Assembly (NCBI GenBank): GCA_030668875.1
Contig: DAOVER010000064.1
Coordinates: forward strand, 1-14,514
DNA: 14,514 bases
Direction: 5' to 3'
Origin: Candidatus Heimdallarchaeota archaeon
Lineage (GTDB): Archaea > Asgardarchaeota > Heimdallarchaeia > Heimdallarchaeales > Heimdallarchaeaceae
This document shows, in pieces, positions 393 through 7,858 of the stretch. Each line of letters opens with the position of its first letter. The first letter of the stretch is position 1. Below the pieces are notes generated by a model. The model saw nothing but the letters and a program-made list of their open reading frames with translations. It ran no database searches and had not been told where the DNA came from. Made by a program: the position numbers and the translations under genes.

Positions 393-917
393 ATGTTGAT
401 TAGAGAAGCAACAACAGCTGATGCAGCTGGAATCGCCCATGTTAAGGTAAATTCATGGAAAACAACCTATAAAGGTCTATTTCCAGATGAAGTTCTAGAT
501 AATCTGTTAATTGAAGAAGAAACCGCAAGATGGGCTAGAAATCTTGATAGTATCTCAAAAACCTATACAAGCTTAGCTCTTGTTGCAGAAACTGATGACA
601 AGGAAATTGTAGGCATCGCTGCGGGAAGAAAAAATGATGACAGAATTTATCATTATGATTGTAACTTAAGCATAATCTATATTCTGAAGGAGTTTCAGAG
701 AAAGAAATTGGGGAAAAGATTAACTGAACAGATTGTAGATTTCTTCATTGAAAAGCGTTTTAAATCAATGATAGTCTGGATTTTGAAAGGAAATCCTAGT
801 TGCTTATTTTATGAAAAATTAGGTGGAATACCAAAAGAAACACAACGAGTTGAGAGATGGGGCATTGTATACGAAGAGATAGGTTATACGTGGGAAGACA
901 TAACAAAGATTTTCTGA
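393..917 (+). CDS. GNAT family N-acetyltransferase
   Basis: N-terminus IREAT.ADA.GIA.V.V.SWKTTYKG; motif A IYILKEFQRKKLGKRL; motif B VWILKGNPSCLFYEKLGG. Confidence 0.92.
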   Translation: MLIREATTADAAGIAHVKVNSWKTTYKGLFPDEVLDNLLIEEETARWARNLDSISKTYTSLALVAETDDKEIVGIAAGRKNDDRIYHYDCNLSIIYILKEFQRKKLGKRLTEQIVDFFIEKRFKSMIVWILKGNPSCLFYEKLGGIPKETQRVERWGIVYEEIGYTWEDITKIF

Positions 918-1250: not shown

Positions 1251-1943
1251 TCATTTTTTCCAGAACTGCCACCTTTTTTTAGCTGAAGATCCTTTTTTAT
1301 CTTCTACTCTGCTAACTGTTTTCCTTAATTCTAGAATACCATCCCTTAGTCCCAATTTATAGATAAGCTCGCGAAAACCATCAGGTTCATTTTCTTCTTC
1401 AATCACATAAATGATTGGAAATCTTTTTCTCTTTACTTCTAGCTGTCTAGTGATTCTGCCGGCTTCATACTTCTCCTTAACTTGACTATCTTTACCAATC
1501 CAAACATAAAGTATGTTATAAGCATCCAGAACAAAAGCATCATCTGATTGAAAGCGTTTGTGTTCAATAGGAAGTTCAGAAACTATTATCTCTCCTTCAT
1601 CATTCTCCTTAATCTGAAGCAATCTGAAATCTTTCTCGTACTTTGTGTCAATTGATTTGAGAAATCCTAAAGTATCTCCTTCAACAACTTCAAAATCAAT
1701 CTGTTCATTAAACTCTACAGGTTCTAAACCTTGATTGATAGTTTCAATTTTCAGTTCATTGTTTTGAATTTCAATCTTCTTTGCTCCCCAAGAACCTATA
1801 AATTTCTCATCAGCAAAAGATTTGGAACCTAACCATATCCAGAGAATGCTTTCTGTTTCAATAACATAAACGTCACCATTAAGAAACTGATACGGTTCCG
1901 TGATTGGAATCAGTTCATTTCCTACAATATGAAATACATTCAT
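1251..1943 (-). CDS. Two-domain gelsolin-family protein (Asgard 2DGel-like actin regulator); probable start ATG 1943, ORF open from 2015
   Basis: Two gelsolin repeats: FLNGDVYVIETESILWIWLGSKSFADEK and FQSDDAFVLDAYNILYVWIGKDSQVKEK...EENEPDGF. The C-terminal tail contains LRKT and KKRWQFWKK. Confidence 0.9.
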   Translation of the reverse strand: MNVFHIVGNELIPITEPYQFLNGDVYVIETESILWIWLGSKSFADEKFIGSWGAKKIEIQNNELKIETINQGLEPVEFNEQIDFEVVEGDTLGFLKSIDTKYEKDFRLLQIKENDEGEIIVSELPIEHKRFQSDDAFVLDAYNILYVWIGKDSQVKEKYEAGRITRQLEVKRKRFPIIYVIEEENEPDGFRELIYKLGLRDGILELRKTVSRVEDKKGSSAKKRWQFWKK

Positions 1944-2090
1944 AGATAGTAAAAGTAATCCTTTGTTAAAACAGTTTTCCCAATAGTCCCTCGTGTTTGG
2001 GTTGATAGTTTGCAAAGTCTTTTATATTTCCATTAGGTGTTCAGATATTGTAAATATATAGTGAATTATTTCATTATATTTCAAGCATTA

Positions 2091-2624
2091 ATGGTGATAA
2101 AAATTAGAAAACAAAGAATTATAAAAGACTATGAAGCTCTGAGAAAATTACATAAAGAAGGAATCGTTGCGCAAGTAAAAACATTCCCTAAAGGTAAGAA
2201 ATCCATGGATCATCTAGCTGTTGGGTTCACTGCTCCTAAGGGGACCCCTTATGCTGGAGGTAAATATAAATTAGAGATTTTCTTTGGTCCAAATTATCCT
2301 TACAAACCTCCCTTTGTAAGACTTCACACACCTATTTGGCATCCTAATTTCTGGCCTAATCCAAAAGAATATCCAAAGAAGAGAAATATTTGTCTTGCTC
2401 TTGTAGATAATGATTTGGTTGGTAAACACGATGGTTGGTCTCCATCTAAAAGTATCACTACTGTCATTCACTCAATTCTTGCTATGTTTAACGTTGAAGG
2501 AGCGTACGTAAATCCTAAGGATGTATTTAACAAAGAAGCTGCTTTGGAATTTTTAAATAATAAAAAGAAATTCATTAAAAAAGCAAATACAATCAATAAG
2601 AAGTATGCAAAATCGTATTGGTAA
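2091..2624 (+). CDS. Ubiquitin-conjugating enzyme E2 (UBC fold); probable start ATG 2091
   Basis: Helix 1 RKQRIIKDY; PKGTPYAGGKYKLEIFFGPNYPYKPPFVRLHTPIWHPN; catalytic Cys in NICL (TGT 2391-2393); WSPSKSITTVIHSI; N.EAA...NKKKF. Confidence 0.95.
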   Translation: MVIKIRKQRIIKDYEALRKLHKEGIVAQVKTFPKGKKSMDHLAVGFTAPKGTPYAGGKYKLEIFFGPNYPYKPPFVRLHTPIWHPNFWPNPKEYPKKRNICLALVDNDLVGKHDGWSPSKSITTVIHSILAMFNVEGAYVNPKDVFNKEAALEFLNNKKKFIKKANTINKKYAKSYW

Positions 2625-3379
2625 TACTAGAATTAGATCTATCTGATGTGAAAATTATGGAAGATGAAGATAACAATTATCCTGTTGAATATAAAAAACT
2701 CCTTGAGAAAATCGAAGCAATTGAAAAAACTCTAGAATTGTTTAAAGTTGATGAAATTGTTGAGGATGTTGAAAAGGAAATTAAAGAAATTAGTGAGGAA
2801 ACCATTTCTGAAGATATTCTTCAGATCAAACCTATTTCAGAGATTGTAATAAAACCTAAAGCTTATCTAAAACTTGCAAAACATGCCTTAACCTATGCAA
2901 ATGATGCAATCCCTAAGAAGAAATGGGTTGAAGTAATAGGATTGCTTACAGGAAATATTAGGGGAGAAGAAACACCATTAGAACAAGTTGTTGTCGAGGA
3001 CTATTGGCCTGTAGATCAGGGTGATGCTGTGAGTGTAGAAATTGTTGATCAAAATATATTTACAGAAATCTTCCATAAAAAGAGAAACGAGCATTTTATA
3101 ATCGGTTGGGCTCATTCCCATCCAAGCTATACACCATTTCTGAGTGGTGATGATTATAGTACACATCTAAGATATCAAACATTTTGGAATAAATCTATAG
3201 CTCTTGTAATAGATCCTTTGATGCTCTCCCCAAAGGATTATGGAATTGGTGTATTTCGCATACATCAAGATAAACAAAAATATTACCAACTATCTGTTGA
3301 AGTTGAAGGAATGAGTAGTGAAGCGTGTTATGAGTCCATAAACACTTTTATGAAAAATCAAACCGATAATTCTAACTAG
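2618..3379 (+). CDS. JAMM/MPN+ metalloprotease (Rpn11/CSN5-like) with an acidic N-terminal coiled-coil extension; start is TTG 2618 or ATG 2657
   Basis: AYLKLAKHA...EVIGLLTG (Glu at 2930). Complete H-x-H-x7-S-x2-D motif in GWAHSHPSYTPFLSGDD (3113-3154), followed by IALVIDP. Confidence 0.93.
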   Translation: MVILELDLSDVKIMEDEDNNYPVEYKKLLEKIEAIEKTLELFKVDEIVEDVEKEIKEISEETISEDILQIKPISEIVIKPKAYLKLAKHALTYANDAIPKKKWVEVIGLLTGNIRGEETPLEQVVVEDYWPVDQGDAVSVEIVDQNIFTEIFHKKRNEHFIIGWAHSHPSYTPFLSGDDYSTHLRYQTFWNKSIALVIDPLMLSPKDYGIGVFRIHQDKQKYYQLSVEVEGMSSEACYESINTFMKNQTDNSN

Positions 3380-3402: not shown

Positions 3403-4515
3403 TTGGATTTAAATGATTTCAAAACCTATCTGGCAATCGGGATTGTTGGTTTAGTTGTTGGAATACTTTATCTAATTCTCCAAGATGATTTATCTAAAAC
3501 GTTAACTATTTTCTTCATAGCTCTGTACATTATTGTTTCATTAAGATATATTTTGGAAAGGAGACACTATAAGAAACACAAAGCGATTCTTGCTAGTACT
3601 CAATTCTTGCTCCTCCCTTTTAGCATTGTTTTGATGGGCAACTATATCTCTCCTCTAGTATACGGTTTGTTCACAATAACTATTGACATTTCTGGTGGAA
3701 ATACGATACAGATGTTCTTCAATTTTGTTTCTCTGTCTCTTATTATCCCAGTTATAATTTTAACTTTTCACTTTAATAATTACTACTCAAGAAAATGGCC
3801 AGCAATAGCTATTAGAAGAAAAGTGAAGAGAAGAAGAAGTATTCCTTTAATAATTCATAGTGTTTTCATTTTCACAATTCTATTAGGATTTTTTATAAAC
3901 GGGCAAATTGATCTAGTTAGTCTTATTTTCGCAATTATATTCTTGATTTTTATTTTTAGATATTTCATATTTGTTAGATTGATAAAATCAGAAAGACGTA
4001 CAGTAATAATGTCTAGTAGTTCTCCTAGCAGACAATCTACTAGGGCAAGAACTTCATCAACAACAAGTCGAAGGTCTTCTTCTCAAACTTCCAGGAGCAG
4101 ACAAATATCCTCTTCAACAAGAACTAGAACAGTTCAGTCAGCTTCTAGAGCTAAAAGAAGTAGTGCTAGGATTGATTCTGGTATTGAAATAACAAACAGA
4201 AAGAAAACTAAGAAACCCACAAAAACCATTAAGACTAAAACTACAGTTCGTGATTTCTTCCCAAATGGTAAGGCAAGTAAAGAAGAAGTGAAATGCATTA
4301 TTTGTTTTATGGATTTTGAGAAGAAGGATACAAGAAAAGTAATCCTCTGCCCTCATTGTAAGTATCCAGCTCATGAAGATGAATTTAGAAGTTGGTACCA
4401 AAATTCAAAATTCTGTGCAAGATGTAATAAGCCAATTTCAGCCTCATATGTAAGAAACCCTAAATACAGAATCACAACAAAAATCTATATTGAAAAAGTA
4501 ATTGACAAATTATAA
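3403..4515 (+). CDS. Polytopic membrane protein with a Ser/Arg-rich linker and a C-terminal RING-like zinc finger (putative membrane E3 ligase)
   Basis: About 5-6 hydrophobic segments in aa 1-192 (judged by eye), then a low-complexity S/R/T linker, then C-x2-C-x14-C-x2-C-x4-H-x2-E-x3-W-x6-C-x2-C (4294-4425). It lies in an operon with the E2 and JAMM genes. TTG start. Confidence 0.85.
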   Translation: MDLNDFKTYLAIGIVGLVVGILYLILQDDLSKTLTIFFIALYIIVSLRYILERRHYKKHKAILASTQFLLLPFSIVLMGNYISPLVYGLFTITIDISGGNTIQMFFNFVSLSLIIPVIILTFHFNNYYSRKWPAIAIRRKVKRRRSIPLIIHSVFIFTILLGFFINGQIDLVSLIFAIIFLIFIFRYFIFVRLIKSERRTVIMSSSSPSRQSTRARTSSTTSRRSSSQTSRSRQISSSTRTRTVQSASRAKRSSARIDSGIEITNRKKTKKPTKTIKTKTTVRDFFPNGKASKEEVKCIICFMDFEKKDTRKVILCPHCKYPAHEDEFRSWYQNSKFCARCNKPISASYVRNPKYRITTKIYIEKVIDKL

Positions 4516-4597
4516 AAAGCATTAAGTCTTATTATGTCAAGAGTGCAGAAAACCAACTATTAAATATGTCTCACTTAAAATACACTAAGGTCTGAAA

Positions 4598-5176
4598 ATG
4601 GGTACTTTGGCACATATAACTGGATCATTCATAACATCGTTATCCTTAGTCGGTGTTTCTATATACTACTTTATCGAAGGAAATGTTGACTTAGGCAAAT
4701 TTTTCATTTTCTTATCCATATATGTCTTTATTACCTTATTTTACATAATTCGAAGTTTATTCTATTTAAAACATAAAGCCACTTTCAACGAATTCATTTA
4801 TGTTTTTATTTTACCAATTGTTCCCGTTTTAATATTGCTGGCTCAAATGCTCTTTGATGTAAATCACTTTGGTACAGTTACTATTAGCGGATTTCCTGAT
4901 GAAAGTTTCAGGGAGGTCAATGCTGTTGATTTTCTTCTATTACCTTATTATCTATATAGTACATTTTTACTCTTTAGAACCTTCATTAGATATCCATTCA
5001 TTAGATTTAGAAGTACAAGCGAAAAAGGGATGAATCCTAAATTTGCCGGTGTTTTACTAATGTTAATTATCCCCGTCATCTATATTGTTACATCAGTAAC
5101 ATCTTTCGAAAATTTCTTCCTACTAATTTCTGGAATAATTTATCTCTACTCAGCCATTATGGCTATATTTGTATGA
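4598..5176 (+). CDS. Polytopic membrane protein, RING-less paralog of the upstream E3 membrane domain
   Basis: About 6 hydrophobic segments. Colinear matches with the 3403 protein: DLSK/DLGK, Y..KHKA, LP, TI.ISG/TVTISG, P.I..R and terminal IFV. Confidence 0.8.
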   Translation: MGTLAHITGSFITSLSLVGVSIYYFIEGNVDLGKFFIFLSIYVFITLFYIIRSLFYLKHKATFNEFIYVFILPIVPVLILLAQMLFDVNHFGTVTISGFPDESFREVNAVDFLLLPYYLYSTFLLFRTFIRYPFIRFRSTSEKGMNPKFAGVLLMLIIPVIYIVTSVTSFENFFLLISGIIYLYSAIMAIFV

Positions 5177-5194: not shown

Positions 5195-5854
5195 TTAACT
5201 TCTTTTTTGCCTTGGTTTCTTGGTTTGTTTAGGATACTTTTGGCTTGGAACTTTATGTTTAGGTATCTTTTGTTTAGGTATTTTATCCTTTTTTACTTCC
5301 TCTATCTTTGATGTTGCAGGAGCTTCTTTTGTTTTCTTTTCTCTTCTTTCTTCTTTTGGTAATGAACGAGAATATGCTTCTGTAATCTCTTTGAATTTCT
5401 CTCGATCATCAGAAGGAGGTGTTTCTTCTCTCTTTTTCTTCTCTTCTTTCTTTAGTGCTTTAGAATCTATAGAGTCTATTTCTTTATATTTCTCTCTTCT
5501 AGGTGGAAGAGACTCCCTTTTCTTTGGTTTAGATTTTTCTTCTTGTGGAATGTAATTAGGTGATTTTGTACTTGAGAAAGTGTCTTGTTTAGGGATTTTA
5601 TCTTTAGGTATCTTTTGTTTTGGAATCCCTTTATTTCTTCCTGATTCTCGACTGTCTCTAAACTGTGATCTTACAGGTTTTGTTTCTGTTTTTCGAGCTT
5701 TTCTTTTTTCAGGAGGAAAAAAATCTTCATCTTTAATCTGCTGTTTAGGGATTTTATCTTTAGGTAATTTGTGCTTTGGGATTTTCGAATCGTATGGAAA
5801 TTTTTGCTTGGGAATTTTGTTTGAAATGCTTTTTTTTCTGTTTCTTTTACCCAT
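5195..5854 (-). CDS. Lys/Glu/Pro-rich, probably disordered protein with K-(hydrophobic)-P-K-x pentapeptide repeats
   Basis: 219-aa ORF starting at ATG, with an upstream AGGTG Shine-Dalgarno-like motif. About 12 KIPKQ-like units occur in three clusters. Confidence 0.75.
   Translation of the reverse strand: MGKRNRKKSISNKIPKQKFPYDSKIPKHKLPKDKIPKQQIKDEDFFPPEKRKARKTETKPVRSQFRDSRESGRNKGIPKQKIPKDKIPKQDTFSSTKSPNYIPQEEKSKPKKRESLPPRREKYKEIDSIDSKALKKEEKKKREETPPSDDREKFKEITEAYSRSLPKEERREKKTKEAPATSKIEEVKKDKIPKQKIPKHKVPSQKYPKQTKKPRQKRS
5586..5766. repeat. Exact 25-bp direct repeat TGTTTAGGGATTTTATCTTTAGGTA (5586-5610 and 5742-5766); degenerate copies near 5222-5290
   Basis: Read directly from the sequence. 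It encodes PKDKIPKQ in the minus-strand protein. Confidence 0.9.
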
Positions 5855-6109
5855 GTGTAAGTCACACCTATTCTAGCCTTTCATGTTTTTCATGATTTTT
5901 GAACGTTTTCAATTTTCATCCTTGTAATTAACATAAGTTACTTGGTTTGAAAACTTATCTAAACCCCAAATTAGTGATAATTATATTTTTGATAAAGATT
6001 TTAGGTTTATTTAAGTTTTTAAATAAGAATAGTTATGTTAAACTATAGGTAATTTTTTAATAAATATGTTGGACTATATTATTTGTATACTAACAAAGGA
6101 TTGAAAAAA

Positions 6110-6469
6110 ATGAGCGAAGAATTTGAAGAAATTTCTTTTGACGAAGAAAAAGAAGAAGAAGAGGTTGTAGAAACCGAAATCAAATCTAAAACTCCTGACA
6201 AGACTAAAACTCCTGCAGGTAAGAAAATAAGTGTATATTTCCAAAGCACAATTGGACCAAGTCCAAAACAAGAAAAACTTGTTGTAGCAACTGATGCTCC
6301 TATTAGTGATATAAAATATACAGTTAGTCAGATCTTTGGGTTACCACCTGATGAATTCCATCTATCTCATGCTGGAAGAACATGTGACAATGACGATGTT
6401 CTTGAAGATTATGGGGTTGAAGATGGAGATACAGTTCTACTGATTCCAGTTTCAACAGCAGGTTGTTAA
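6110..6469 (+). CDS. Ubiquitin-like modifier precursor with an acidic N-terminal extension, ending ...STAG-C; probable start ATG 6110
   Basis: Ungapped manual alignment to ubiquitin residues 23-76: ISDIKYTVSQIFGLPPDEFHLSHAGRTCDNDDVLEDYGVEDGDTVLLIPVSTAG versus [54 protein letters not shown]. Lies next to the E1 gene. Confidence 0.92.
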   Translation: MSEEFEEISFDEEKEEEEVVETEIKSKTPDKTKTPAGKKISVYFQSTIGPSPKQEKLVVATDAPISDIKYTVSQIFGLPPDEFHLSHAGRTCDNDDVLEDYGVEDGDTVLLIPVSTAGC

Positions 6470-6601: not shown

Positions 6602-7858
6602 ATGAACGCAAAAGACACAAAAAAATCTAATTTCTTCGATGAAACCCTTTCAAAAGATGAGAGAATAAGATTCGATAGACAACTTAGATTACCAGGATGG
6701 AATCAGAAAGCTTTGAAGGATTCAACAGTTTTAATCGTTGGAGTAGGAGGATTAGGAACAGAAACAGCAAAAAACTTAGCTATGGCTGGTGTGGGAACTA
6801 TTCATCTTATCGATTTAGATATTATTGAATATTCGAATCTGAATAGACAAATATTGTTCTCAGATGCAGATGAAGGAGATCCTAAAGCTAAAGTTGCAGC
6901 AAGAGCTCTAGAAAAGATAAACCCCTATAGTAAATACATTTGGCACCATTCCAATCTAGAAGATGTTGATCCAGAAGTCTATGCGACAGCTGATTTGTAT
7001 ATTTCTGGCTTAGATTCTGTTACAGCAAGGAATGAGCTAATACGAAGAGCGGTTCAGTTTAAGAAACCGATGATTGATGGAGGAACTGCAACATATTATG
7101 GTCATGTTTATACTTATTTACCAGGTAAAAATGCATGCCTTCAATGTGATCCACAACAAGAACGCGAAAGAGAATCTTTAGCAGCTTGCACACTTGTAGG
7201 AATACCAAGAAAGAAATCTCATTGTTTGTTGAAAGGACAACTATATTTTGAATCAAAGAACAATAGACCCCCCGATACGACTGTTTTGGAAGAAATGAAT
7301 CTTGTAATAAATTATGCAAATAATTTAGTGAAAGAGCATTTTCCATCTGAAAATGTATTTTCTTTAGATGAAGCTGTGAAAATGGTTGACCAGCACGACC
7401 CAACAATCATAAGTATTAATGCTGTAATGGCCTCTTTACAATCACAAGAAGCATTGAAACTTATGCACCATCTCAAAGGAATAGAACTAGGTACTGTAAA
7501 TCCTGAGTATGTTATTTACAATGGATTAGTAGGGAAATTCTTCTATATAGAAAAGCCACCAAATAAGAAATGTATGCTCTGTGGTAAAAATGCTACTGCA
7601 ATTGAAGAAGTAAAATTACCTGCAACTGCTACTATCGATGTTTTACTCTCAATTATTAAAAGTAGAGGGTATGATTATGATCCTGAATTTTTACCTTCAT
7701 TTTGGTTAATTGATAAAAAAGACCCTGTAGATGTAGAAATAGATTCAACTGTGAAAGAACAAGGGATACGAAACCATGAAACATTGTATGTTACAGGTCT
7801 TACGAATAAAGGTGAAGAAATCGATCTTAATGTTAGGATAATCCTGAATCAAGGCTAA
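6602..7858 (+). CDS. Ubiquitin-like activating enzyme E1 (UBA2/UBA3-type, with catalytic-Cys domain and probable C-terminal ubiquitin-fold domain)
   Basis: RFDRQLRL; Rossmann VGVGGLG; D..EYSNLNRQ; DGGT; zinc pairs CLQC (7136) and CMLC (7571); catalytic motif CTLVGIPRKKSHC (Cys 7187-7189); PTIISINAVMA; about 90-aa C-terminal extension. Confidence 0.95.
   Translation: MNAKDTKKSNFFDETLSKDERIRFDRQLRLPGWNQKALKDSTVLIVGVGGLGTETAKNLAMAGVGTIHLIDLDIIEYSNLNRQILFSDADEGDPKAKVAARALEKINPYSKYIWHHSNLEDVDPEVYATADLYISGLDSVTARNELIRRAVQFKKPMIDGGTATYYGHVYTYLPGKNACLQCDPQQERERESLAACTLVGIPRKKSHCLLKGQLYFESKNNRPPDTTVLEEMNLVINYANNLVKEHFPSENVFSLDEAVKMVDQHDPTIISINAVMASLQSQEALKLMHHLKGIELGTVNPEYVIYNGLVGKFFYIEKPPNKKCMLCGKNATAIEEVKLPATATIDVLLSIIKSRGYDYDPEFLPSFWLIDKKDPVDVEIDSTVKEQGIRNHETLYVTGLTNKGEEIDLNVRIILNQG

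Follow-up and report, generated by a model that had tools for sequence, protein, structure and literature searches.

A membrane RING-H2-like protein and its RING-less paralog in a Heimdallarchaeal ubiquitylation cluster

Within a 14.5-kb contig that we analyzed whole (14,514 nucleotides, hereafter the window), a six-helix membrane protein that ends in a RING-H2-like finger (the TM-RING protein, P0001; TM, transmembrane) is followed by a smaller protein that resembles its membrane domain and carries no finger (the RING-less protein, P0002), both encoded amid genes for the conjugation of ubiquitin (Ub). What would a copy of the membrane domain do next to a putative ubiquitin ligase (E3) once it lacks the catalytic part? 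The best reading of our data, at roughly even odds, is that the two proteins form a hetero-oligomeric membrane ligase in which the RING-less protein is the non-catalytic partner that docks or regulates a client, the binding itself being the part that we infer. To our knowledge, membrane-embedded RING ligases and ligase complexes composed of active and inactive paralogs have been regarded as eukaryotic inventions, as in endoplasmic-reticulum-associated degradation, peroxisomal import and quality control at the inner nuclear membrane, and the conserved pair described here suggests that archaea closely related to eukaryotes may use a membrane ubiquitin ligase of two subunits. Our results bear out part of what the first-pass annotation of this DNA had proposed, namely the paralogy of the two proteins, their shared neighborhood and the unrecognized family of their membrane domain.

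Relation of the two membrane proteins

The membrane domains of the TM-RING and RING-less proteins are true, if distant, paralogs. A BLASTP comparison of P0001 with P0002 is significant for residues 11-61 alone (37% identity, E 2e-4), and because a single-sequence comparison covers so short a stretch, we built family alignments comprising 30 RING-less proteins (A1), 28 TM-RING proteins (A2), 25 more divergent RING-less proteins from an exhaustive hidden Markov model (HMM) search of 1.84 billion representative proteins (A3) and the TM domains of 21 TM-RING proteins taken from several lineages of Asgard archaea (A5). Profile-profile comparison aligned A2 with A1 at 83% probability (E 8e-6, 166 columns), A2 with A3 at 97.2% (E 4.8e-11, 182 columns, positions 1-193 vs. 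1-194) and, with hhalign, A5 with A3 at 97.7% (E 2.6e-12, 191 columns). The colinear alignment over about 190 residues that had been claimed from the two sequences is thereby confirmed with family profiles over the whole domain, at a significance that leaves the paralogy standing. The details given with that claim also hold: the 9/22 ungapped identities lie at residues 40-61 in both proteins, and the quoted strings are all present at matching residue numbers, with DLSK/DLGK near 30, FLLLP/FILP near 70, KWPAIAIR/RYPFIRFR at 131-138 in both, and IFV near 190.

Could this resemblance be a chance likeness between hydrophobic proteins, or the second open reading frame (ORF) a decaying remnant? The short reach of BLASTP (52 residues) would fit such a view, as would the A1 HMM, which did not match the neighboring TM-RING gene in the window's own genome at E <= 1. 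The profile comparisons and their controls refute it, leaving it virtually no credence. With a TM-only A2 profile, the real score was 61, vs. 18-19 for reversed profiles and at most 24.7 in 20 shuffles, in which columns were permuted within 20-column blocks so that the hydrophobicity pattern was kept; with reversed and shuffled controls at background, far below the real score, hydrophobic bias is ruled out, and the profile-profile E values run from 5e-11 to 3e-12 over the full domain. HMM matches are also reciprocal in other genomes, as evidenced by: 1) the A3 HMM matches the adjoining TM-RING ORF in genome G133 (E 8e-4) and a 377-residue TM-RING ORF of a different family (E 7e-8); 2) within a small local set of ORFs, A3 matches the TM-RING protein of the LC_2 genome (6.7e-11) and a non-Heimdall one (1.2e-9), while A2 matches RING-less proteins (7e-6). 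The RING-less ORF itself is intact, being conserved at full length without stops (37-93% identity) in more than 50 sequence clusters, and the family is, to judge from these sequences, under strong purifying selection.

Homology is most evident in the TM1-TM2 hairpin, which alone reaches 96.5% probability, and the signal is weaker, still colinear, in the remainder; in the AlphaFold2 (AF2) models of both proteins, the helices and short strands follow in identical order. The first-pass annotation had explained the pair by a tandem duplication, which is plausible; the RING-less clade is not nested in the Heimdall TM-RING clade. In a maximum-likelihood tree of the TM domains, RING-less proteins (100/99), Heimdall TM-RING proteins (98/94) and other TM-RING proteins (99/98) form three clades that join at one node, so that the tree is silent on a Heimdall-specific vs. 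an older duplication; the order of subclades is congruent between the two Heimdall clades, as co-inheritance predicts. A pseudo-symmetric complex, also proposed there, has found no support so far, and a search for an internal repeat in the six-helix domain found none, the best comparison (hairpin 1-2 vs. 5-6) reaching 19% probability.

In the AF2 model of the TM-RING protein, helices span residues 6-27, 30-58, 67-85, 114-128, 146-166 and 171-203, with a block-mean predicted local distance difference test score (pLDDT) of 67-93. Both its N and C termini are predicted to be cytoplasmic, and the K/R-rich loops 2-3 and 4-5 fit the positive-inside rule; the linker beyond the helices varies in length and sequence in alignment A2. 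P0002 consists of six TM helices and nothing else (AF2 pLDDT 79.5). Within its own genome, P0002 scores highest with the A1 HMM, and it carries all motifs of the RING-less family, which comprises proteins of ~190-200 residues with six TM helices, has no database name and yielded 22 representative clusters in the exhaustive HMM search, the longest member having 239 residues. The family motifs, Y56-x2-H59-K-A61-T-F-N64-E65 and R127..R131-Y-P-F-I-R136..S141-E-K-G144 in A1 and A3, lie on cytoplasmic loops, and the invariant polar or charged residues are E27, N64, E65, D111, R127, R131, R136, S141, E142 and N172. In the TM-RING and RING-less families alike, conservation peaks in the two cytoplasmic loops, TM2-3 and TM4-5, and is lowest in the outside loops, so that the working surface would face the ubiquitin machinery. 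The cytoplasmic surface of the RING-less protein (ATFNE; RYPFIR..TSEKG) differs from that of the TM-RING protein and is even more conserved. A polar cluster on the extracellular side was considered as a sensor site and dropped, the outside loops being the least conserved parts. A distant RING-less member, P0134 (239 residues, from a 912-bp ENA contig), has a C-terminal tail that is first Ser/Arg-rich and then acidic, with no finger; reminiscent of the TM-RING linker, this tail may be a relic of RING loss.

For the membrane domain, Pfam, the PDB and the Atlas yielded no match, in agreement with the earlier remark that its family was not recognized. Foldseek against the PDB returned no match at E <= 0.001 for either model, and the best VIA-align Z scores (7.8-8.1 for both models) came from partial helical matches. 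Searching the ESM Atlas by shape gave no convincing match for either model (TM-score of at most 0.51, to DUF2157), except for a Promethearchaeota cluster that is probably the Loki orthologue, and the Atlas feature search gave no usable match. The PDB sequence-profile search with A5 and A3 found nothing credible, the best being the G subunit of the Mrp antiporter (E 0.026, 49 residues). Pex2/10/12, derlin/rhomboid and MARCH proteins were not in the fold-search lists, an absence that does not exclude them. These searches bear on the view that the membrane domain is itself active, for instance as a small transporter or as an enzyme directed at lipids or the envelope, with a RING fused to one copy and the RING-less protein keeping the ancestral function. 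Several invariant polar or charged residues in a membrane protein of 190 residues speak for such an activity, which we nevertheless consider quite improbable, given that no transporter or enzyme fold was matched, that conservation peaks on the cytoplasmic loops and not within the membrane, and that no stand-alone members were found outside genomes with the ubiquitin operon; when longer proteins were searched by word index with the TM profile, all those returned were TM-RING proteins of 365-406 residues, and all those with a named source are Asgard.

The finger of the TM-RING protein

The C-terminal part of the TM-RING protein has the invariant pattern C298-x2-C301 ... C316-P-x-C319-x4-H324-x2-E327-x3-W331-x6-C338-x-R-C341, and this signature is present in every Asgard TM-RING protein extracted. 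A profile of the last 88 residues of TM-RING proteins (A4), compared with PDB sequences, is related to solved RING domains, with RNF24 as the best match (E 9.7e-6); further matches are RNF38, ARK2C/RNF165, EL5, Arkadia, RNF126, RNF13, listerin, Hrd1 and ZNRF3, mostly RING-H2 E3s, together with zinc fingers of IFT144/WDR19. In the spacing of its first and last Cys pairs, its His and its Trp, the finger agrees with RNF24, RNF38, ARK2C/RNF165, EL5 and Arkadia. It differs from RNF24-type RING-H2 domains at ligand 4, where the canonical His is replaced by Tyr/Phe321 and an extra invariant Cys occurs three residues upstream, and at ligand 6, where the Cys of RNF24 is an invariant Glu327; Cys316 likely stands in for ligand 4. 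The hydrophobic residues corresponding to E2 contacts (E2, ubiquitin-conjugating enzyme), I299/I300 following ligand 1 and W331 four positions beyond ligand 6, are conserved and align with the equivalent positions of RNF24 and RNF38.

Modeled by AF2 within the whole protein, the finger has strands at 312-315 and 322-324 and a helix at 325-335 (pLDDT ~80), and Foldseek with the whole TM-RING model listed U-box and Hrd1 RING domains at E >1 only. Both zf-RING_2 and Prok-RING_1 match all 20 family members weakly, zf-RING_2 remaining below its cutoff throughout (best E 2.3e-5). Since the finger misses the Pfam threshold and the full C3H2C3 ligand set, yet aligns with solved RING-H2 domains, we name it a RING-H2-like variant, one that probably works like a RING. 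In the same genome and outside the window, a second protein of ~199 residues (G000:C34:54769-55143, minus strand) matches the RING part alone of the TM-RING profile (E 1.5e-12); RING proteins of 190-200 residues like this one are found in most genomes of the class, including those without the operon.

The pair and its Lys/Pro-rich neighbor across Asgard genomes

To see how the pair is distributed, we used 200 genomes drawn evenly from the Asgard phylum, with families coded f1, f2 and so on. The A3 HMM matched in 31 of these genomes, the match in G041 being the TM-RING ORF itself, which leaves 30 genomes with a RING-less gene: the window's own plus 13/20 in f1, 6/7 in f2 and 10/10 in f5, i.e., three families of one class. 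All 30 also encode a TM-RING protein, either full-length or truncated by a contig end, and by coordinates TM-RING lies immediately upstream on the same strand in ~24 pairs (spacers of 17-160 bp in the loci read), so that the adjacency noted in the window is conserved in its relatives. The 17-bp spacer, in locus L016 of family f5, fits one transcript there; in f5 the eight genes Ub-Ub-E1-E2-JAB-TM-RING-RING-less-Lys/Pro-rich (E1, ubiquitin-activating enzyme; JAB, deubiquitinase) are all co-directional. The RING-less gene is inverted, ~1.1 kb from TM-RING, in G015 and in the LC_2 genome, and the separation of the pair in G198 and G159 reflects contig ends. Genomes of the class without the pair, two closed ones included, also lack an orthologue of the operon E1, and lacking one gene of the pair means lacking both; the whole cluster is thus present or absent as a unit. 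Full-length E1 orthologues, in turn, were found solely in genomes that also carry TM-RING.

Outside the class, many genomes have ORFs of 353-411 residues that match the RING together with most of the TM profile (31/40 genomes of f13; also f19, f26 and f14), with 0/43 genomes matching in f10, the largest coded family. The six outside-class loci that we examined read Ub-E1-E2-JAB-TM-RING followed by unrelated genes, with no detectable paralog, and the same order of these five genes is seen in a metagenome-assembled genome (MAG) labeled Hodarchaeota; in a further lineage (L027/L028), the order is Ub-E1-E2-JAB-TM-RING-RING-less. The membrane RING is thus the predicted standard operon E3 of many Asgard lineages, and the RING-less paralog appears as an addition in the Heimdall group and in the L027/L028 lineage. 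A MAG labeled Candidatus Thorarchaeota (L048, JBHLQZ010000038.1; P0091) encodes a pair of the Heimdall type, 50-57% identical to the proteins of the window; the label or binning of this MAG may be wrong. In a Loki-type genome, a 143-residue ORF with about four TM helices (L010:6154-6585, minus strand) directly follows TM-RING and is not matched by the RING-less HMMs.

Convergent with the RING-less gene of the window lies a gene for a Lys/Pro-rich protein of 219 residues with no Cys, 25% Lys and seven K[IT]PK motifs clustered at both termini. No other ORF of this genome has more than two such motifs, and the idea that K[IT]PK is a genome-wide degron here was rejected, the motif cluster being confined to this neighbor. 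In f1, f2 and f5, most of the loci inspected have, adjacent to the RING-less gene or close by, a homologue or analogue whose termini bear the same motifs; in L024 none was picked up beside that gene, and in L017 and L018 the nearest is 1.6-1.8 kb away. The linkage is kept through changes of orientation (L002, L011) and in two loci whose RING-less gene is no longer in the operon (L020, L022). We surmise that this protein may be a client, a substrate, a co-factor or a third component of the system. In a non-Heimdall locus of family f26, a 283-residue coiled-coil protein (L009:1956-2807, minus strand) with SKTPK/EKTP at both termini lies divergently upstream of the Ub gene. That locus has no RING-less paralog, so the terminal K-T-P motif may predate the RING-less gene.

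A linkage of this kind raises the prospect that the RING-less protein acts without touching TM-RING, serving on its own in the membrane to receive or anchor the K[IT]PK protein or another cytoplasmic factor, the two paralogs sharing only ancestry and regulation. In line with this are the retention of the RING-less gene beside the Lys/Pro-rich gene off the operon and in altered orientation, as well as its cytoplasmic loops, which have invariant motifs of their own, distinct from those of TM-RING. We judge it unlikely, if still a serious contender, because the 30/30 co-occurrence with TM-RING, the same-strand adjacency of most pairs with a spacer as short as 17 bp, and the finding that the RING-less gene never occurs without the ubiquitin operon in the genomes searched all argue against it.

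Another possibility is a decoy or negative regulator that would occupy the oligomerization surface or the client site of TM-RING and so lower ligase output. In several eukaryotic RING pairs, an inactive paralog modulates the active RING, with MDMX being the textbook case. The shared core of the two proteins is indeed best kept in the TM1-2 hairpin, the RING-less copy is without the catalytic part, and lineages without it still have the full operon. Nothing in these data separates a decoy from a positive adaptor, but the RING-less protein's own cytoplasmic motifs are so highly conserved that a gain of binding function seems likelier than mere blocking, and we consider the decoy improbable.

Returning to the hetero-oligomeric ligase, several findings weigh against it: 1) for the finger of P0001, the single-sequence match to zf-RING_2 has an E value of 0.018 and the excised domain scores 19.3 bits vs. 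a cutoff of 27.3, which is below the Pfam threshold; 2) in place of the eight ligands of a C3H2C3 set, it has seven invariant Cys/His residues (C298, C301, C316, C319, H324, C338 and C341); 3) in at least two f2 genomes (G036 and G165) the RING-less gene is on another contig and is absent from the 3-5 kb flanking TM-RING, so that adjacency is not obligatory; 4) linkage of the RING-less gene to the Lys/Pro-rich gene looks tighter than to TM-RING; 5) co-occurrence of the pair is partly explained by gain or loss of the whole operon as a unit; and 6) most Asgard lineages have TM-RING alone, so the partner is dispensable for basic E3 function. A complex prediction with TM-RING residues 1-200 and the RING-less protein, both supplied as alignments, gave an ipSAE of 0.00, a value that counts neither for nor against binding.

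A proposed membrane ligase and its setting

In the assembly that we propose, the putative E3 would comprise six TM helices, a flexible linker and a cytoplasmic RING-H2-like finger, with the finger hanging over the cytoplasmic face on a tether of ~85 residues. The RING-less protein would assemble with it in the membrane as a non-catalytic subunit, the TM1-TM2 hairpin, as the part best shared by the paralogs, being the likely contact. Its cytoplasmic loops, with the ATFNE and RYPFIR..TSEKG motifs, could then provide a second docking surface beside the RING, one that may serve as an adaptor or regulator bringing a client to the RING-bound E2~Ub, and the likeliest client would be the K[IT]PK-repeat protein that usually accompanies the RING-less gene. 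Such an assembly would aim ubiquitylation at the cytoplasmic face of the cell membrane. More tentatively, we envision a multi-subunit membrane ligase of the Heimdall group, consisting of a catalytic TM-RING, a RING-less subunit and a dedicated K[IT]PK client or co-factor, built on a membrane fold without known relatives.

If the TM-RING, RING-less and Lys/Pro-rich proteins do assemble, multi-subunit membrane ubiquitylation would predate eukaryotes. The system would then be a prokaryotic counterpart, in organization, of the eukaryotic heteromeric membrane E3 complexes, and a division of labor between active and inactive ligase paralogs would precede eukaryogenesis. With about eight genes, reconstitution of the system should be feasible. 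The locus also gives a context to three unannotated families, namely the TM-RING membrane domain, the RING-less paralog and the K[IT]PK protein.

Heteromeric membrane RING ligases built from paralogs are known in eukaryotes as Pex2/Pex10/Pex12 and Asi1/Asi3, in which a multi-pass membrane domain is followed by a cytoplasmic C-terminal RING and every paralog keeps a RING-like finger. The pair described here has the same domain layout and, in our proposal, would likewise place paralogous subunits of unequal catalytic competence in one complex. In contrast, one paralog here is without any finger, and no relation in sequence or fold was detected. Hrd1/synoviolin resembles the TM-RING protein in combining a polytopic membrane domain with a C-terminal RING-H2, its RING matching the finger weakly in both the profile and the Foldseek searches, and it also works with non-RING membrane partners. 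However, the Hrd1 membrane domain does not rise above background (9uav_B, Z 7.4, root-mean-square deviation 3.9, 113 residues, tied with many unrelated helical proteins), it has eight helices vs. six here, and Hrd1 partners such as Der1 are not Hrd1 paralogs.

Among archaeal systems, Caldiarchaeum subterraneum has operon-encoded Ub, E1, E2, a small RING finger protein and Rpn11 (PMC5654768, PMC6043591), and an Asgard E1/E2/RING E3 cascade from a Helarchaeial operon is active in vitro (bioRxiv 10.1101/2023.07.25.550441). The window shares with these systems the five clustered functions, with its finger expected to act as the E3. In contrast to the characterized archaeal E3s, which were reported as small RING finger proteins or were handled purified, the RING here is the tail of a six-helix membrane protein, to which a RING-less paralog and a Lys/Pro-rich protein are added. 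In the literature that we searched on archaeal and Asgard ubiquitin systems, neither a polytopic membrane operon E3 nor a RING-less partner is mentioned. Hatano et al. identified Asgard E3s using IPR018611; since the finger described here falls below Pfam cutoffs, surveys that look for Asgard E3s with the usual RING or UFM1-ligase signatures can overlook the putative E3 of the operon itself.

The window holds an Asgard ubiquitylation cluster that belongs to a type already described in Caldiarchaeum and in Asgard genomes (PMC5654768, PMC6043591), with genes in the order E2, JAB, TM-RING, RING-less, Lys/Pro-rich protein, Ub and E1 (Table 1). All parts of an archaeal operon-encoded ubiquitylation system are present, i.e., a Ub-like modifier, a ThiF E1, a UQ_con E2, a JAB/Rpn11 protein and a RING protein, and the same five functions occur in L002, L004-L011, L014-L016, L019, L021 and L023 and, per gene tables, in L027 and L052. 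In all related loci, the E2 orthologue has the equivalent position and the JAB gene lies immediately upstream of the TM-RING gene. The TTG start assigned to P0001 is matched by its homologues, which start at the equivalent position with M-E/D-L-N.

Table 1. Positions of genes, protein regions and the spacer within the window
Feature	Position	Strand	Description	Basis
GNAT gene	393-917			Pfam
Gelsolin gene	1251-2015	-		Pfam
E2 ubiquitin-conjugating enzyme	2037-2624	+	heads the E2-JAB-E3 block	Pfam UQ_con, E 2.4e-26
JAB/MPN deubiquitinase	2618-3379	+	Rpn11-like	Pfam JAB, E 7.5e-13
TM-RING gene	3403-4515	+	370 residues (P0001), TTG start	
TM-RING membrane domain	3403-3990	+	residues 1-196, six helices	AF2
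TM-RING linker	3991-4251	+	residues 197-283, disordered, Ser/Thr/Arg/Lys-rich	pLDDT <50 for residues 198-282
RING-H2-like zinc finger	4252-4515	+	residues 284-370, then stop codon	profile A4
Spacer between paralogs	4516-4597	+	82 bp, with A/T-rich TTAAATAT stretch	read from sequence
RING-less paralog	4598-5176	+	192 residues (P0002)	
Lys/Pro-rich protein	5195-5854	-	disordered, 219 residues	translation; no Pfam annotation
Ubiquitin-like modifier	6083-6469	+		Pfam ubiquitin, E 1e-7
E1 activating enzyme	6602-7858	+	ThiF family	Pfam ThiF, E 1.4e-54

The contig belongs to a genome of ~3.2 Mb that is 92% complete (G+C ~31%), and the nearest relatives of its proteins are labeled Candidatus Heimdallarchaeota, Heimdallarchaeaceae or Kariarchaeaceae. 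The DNA of the window was found in marine sediment metagenomes; RNA evidence of co-transcription was sought among the datasets holding this DNA, and no RNA dataset is listed there. The gelsolin gene, which encodes two domains, is divergent from the E2 gene; gelsolin adjoins the cluster in G198 (L013) as well and is absent beside it in L004, so that this link is not general. In L010, the operon E2 is split into two ORFs of 94 and 85 residues (L010:8740-9296, minus strand), which could be due to a frameshift or an assembly error.

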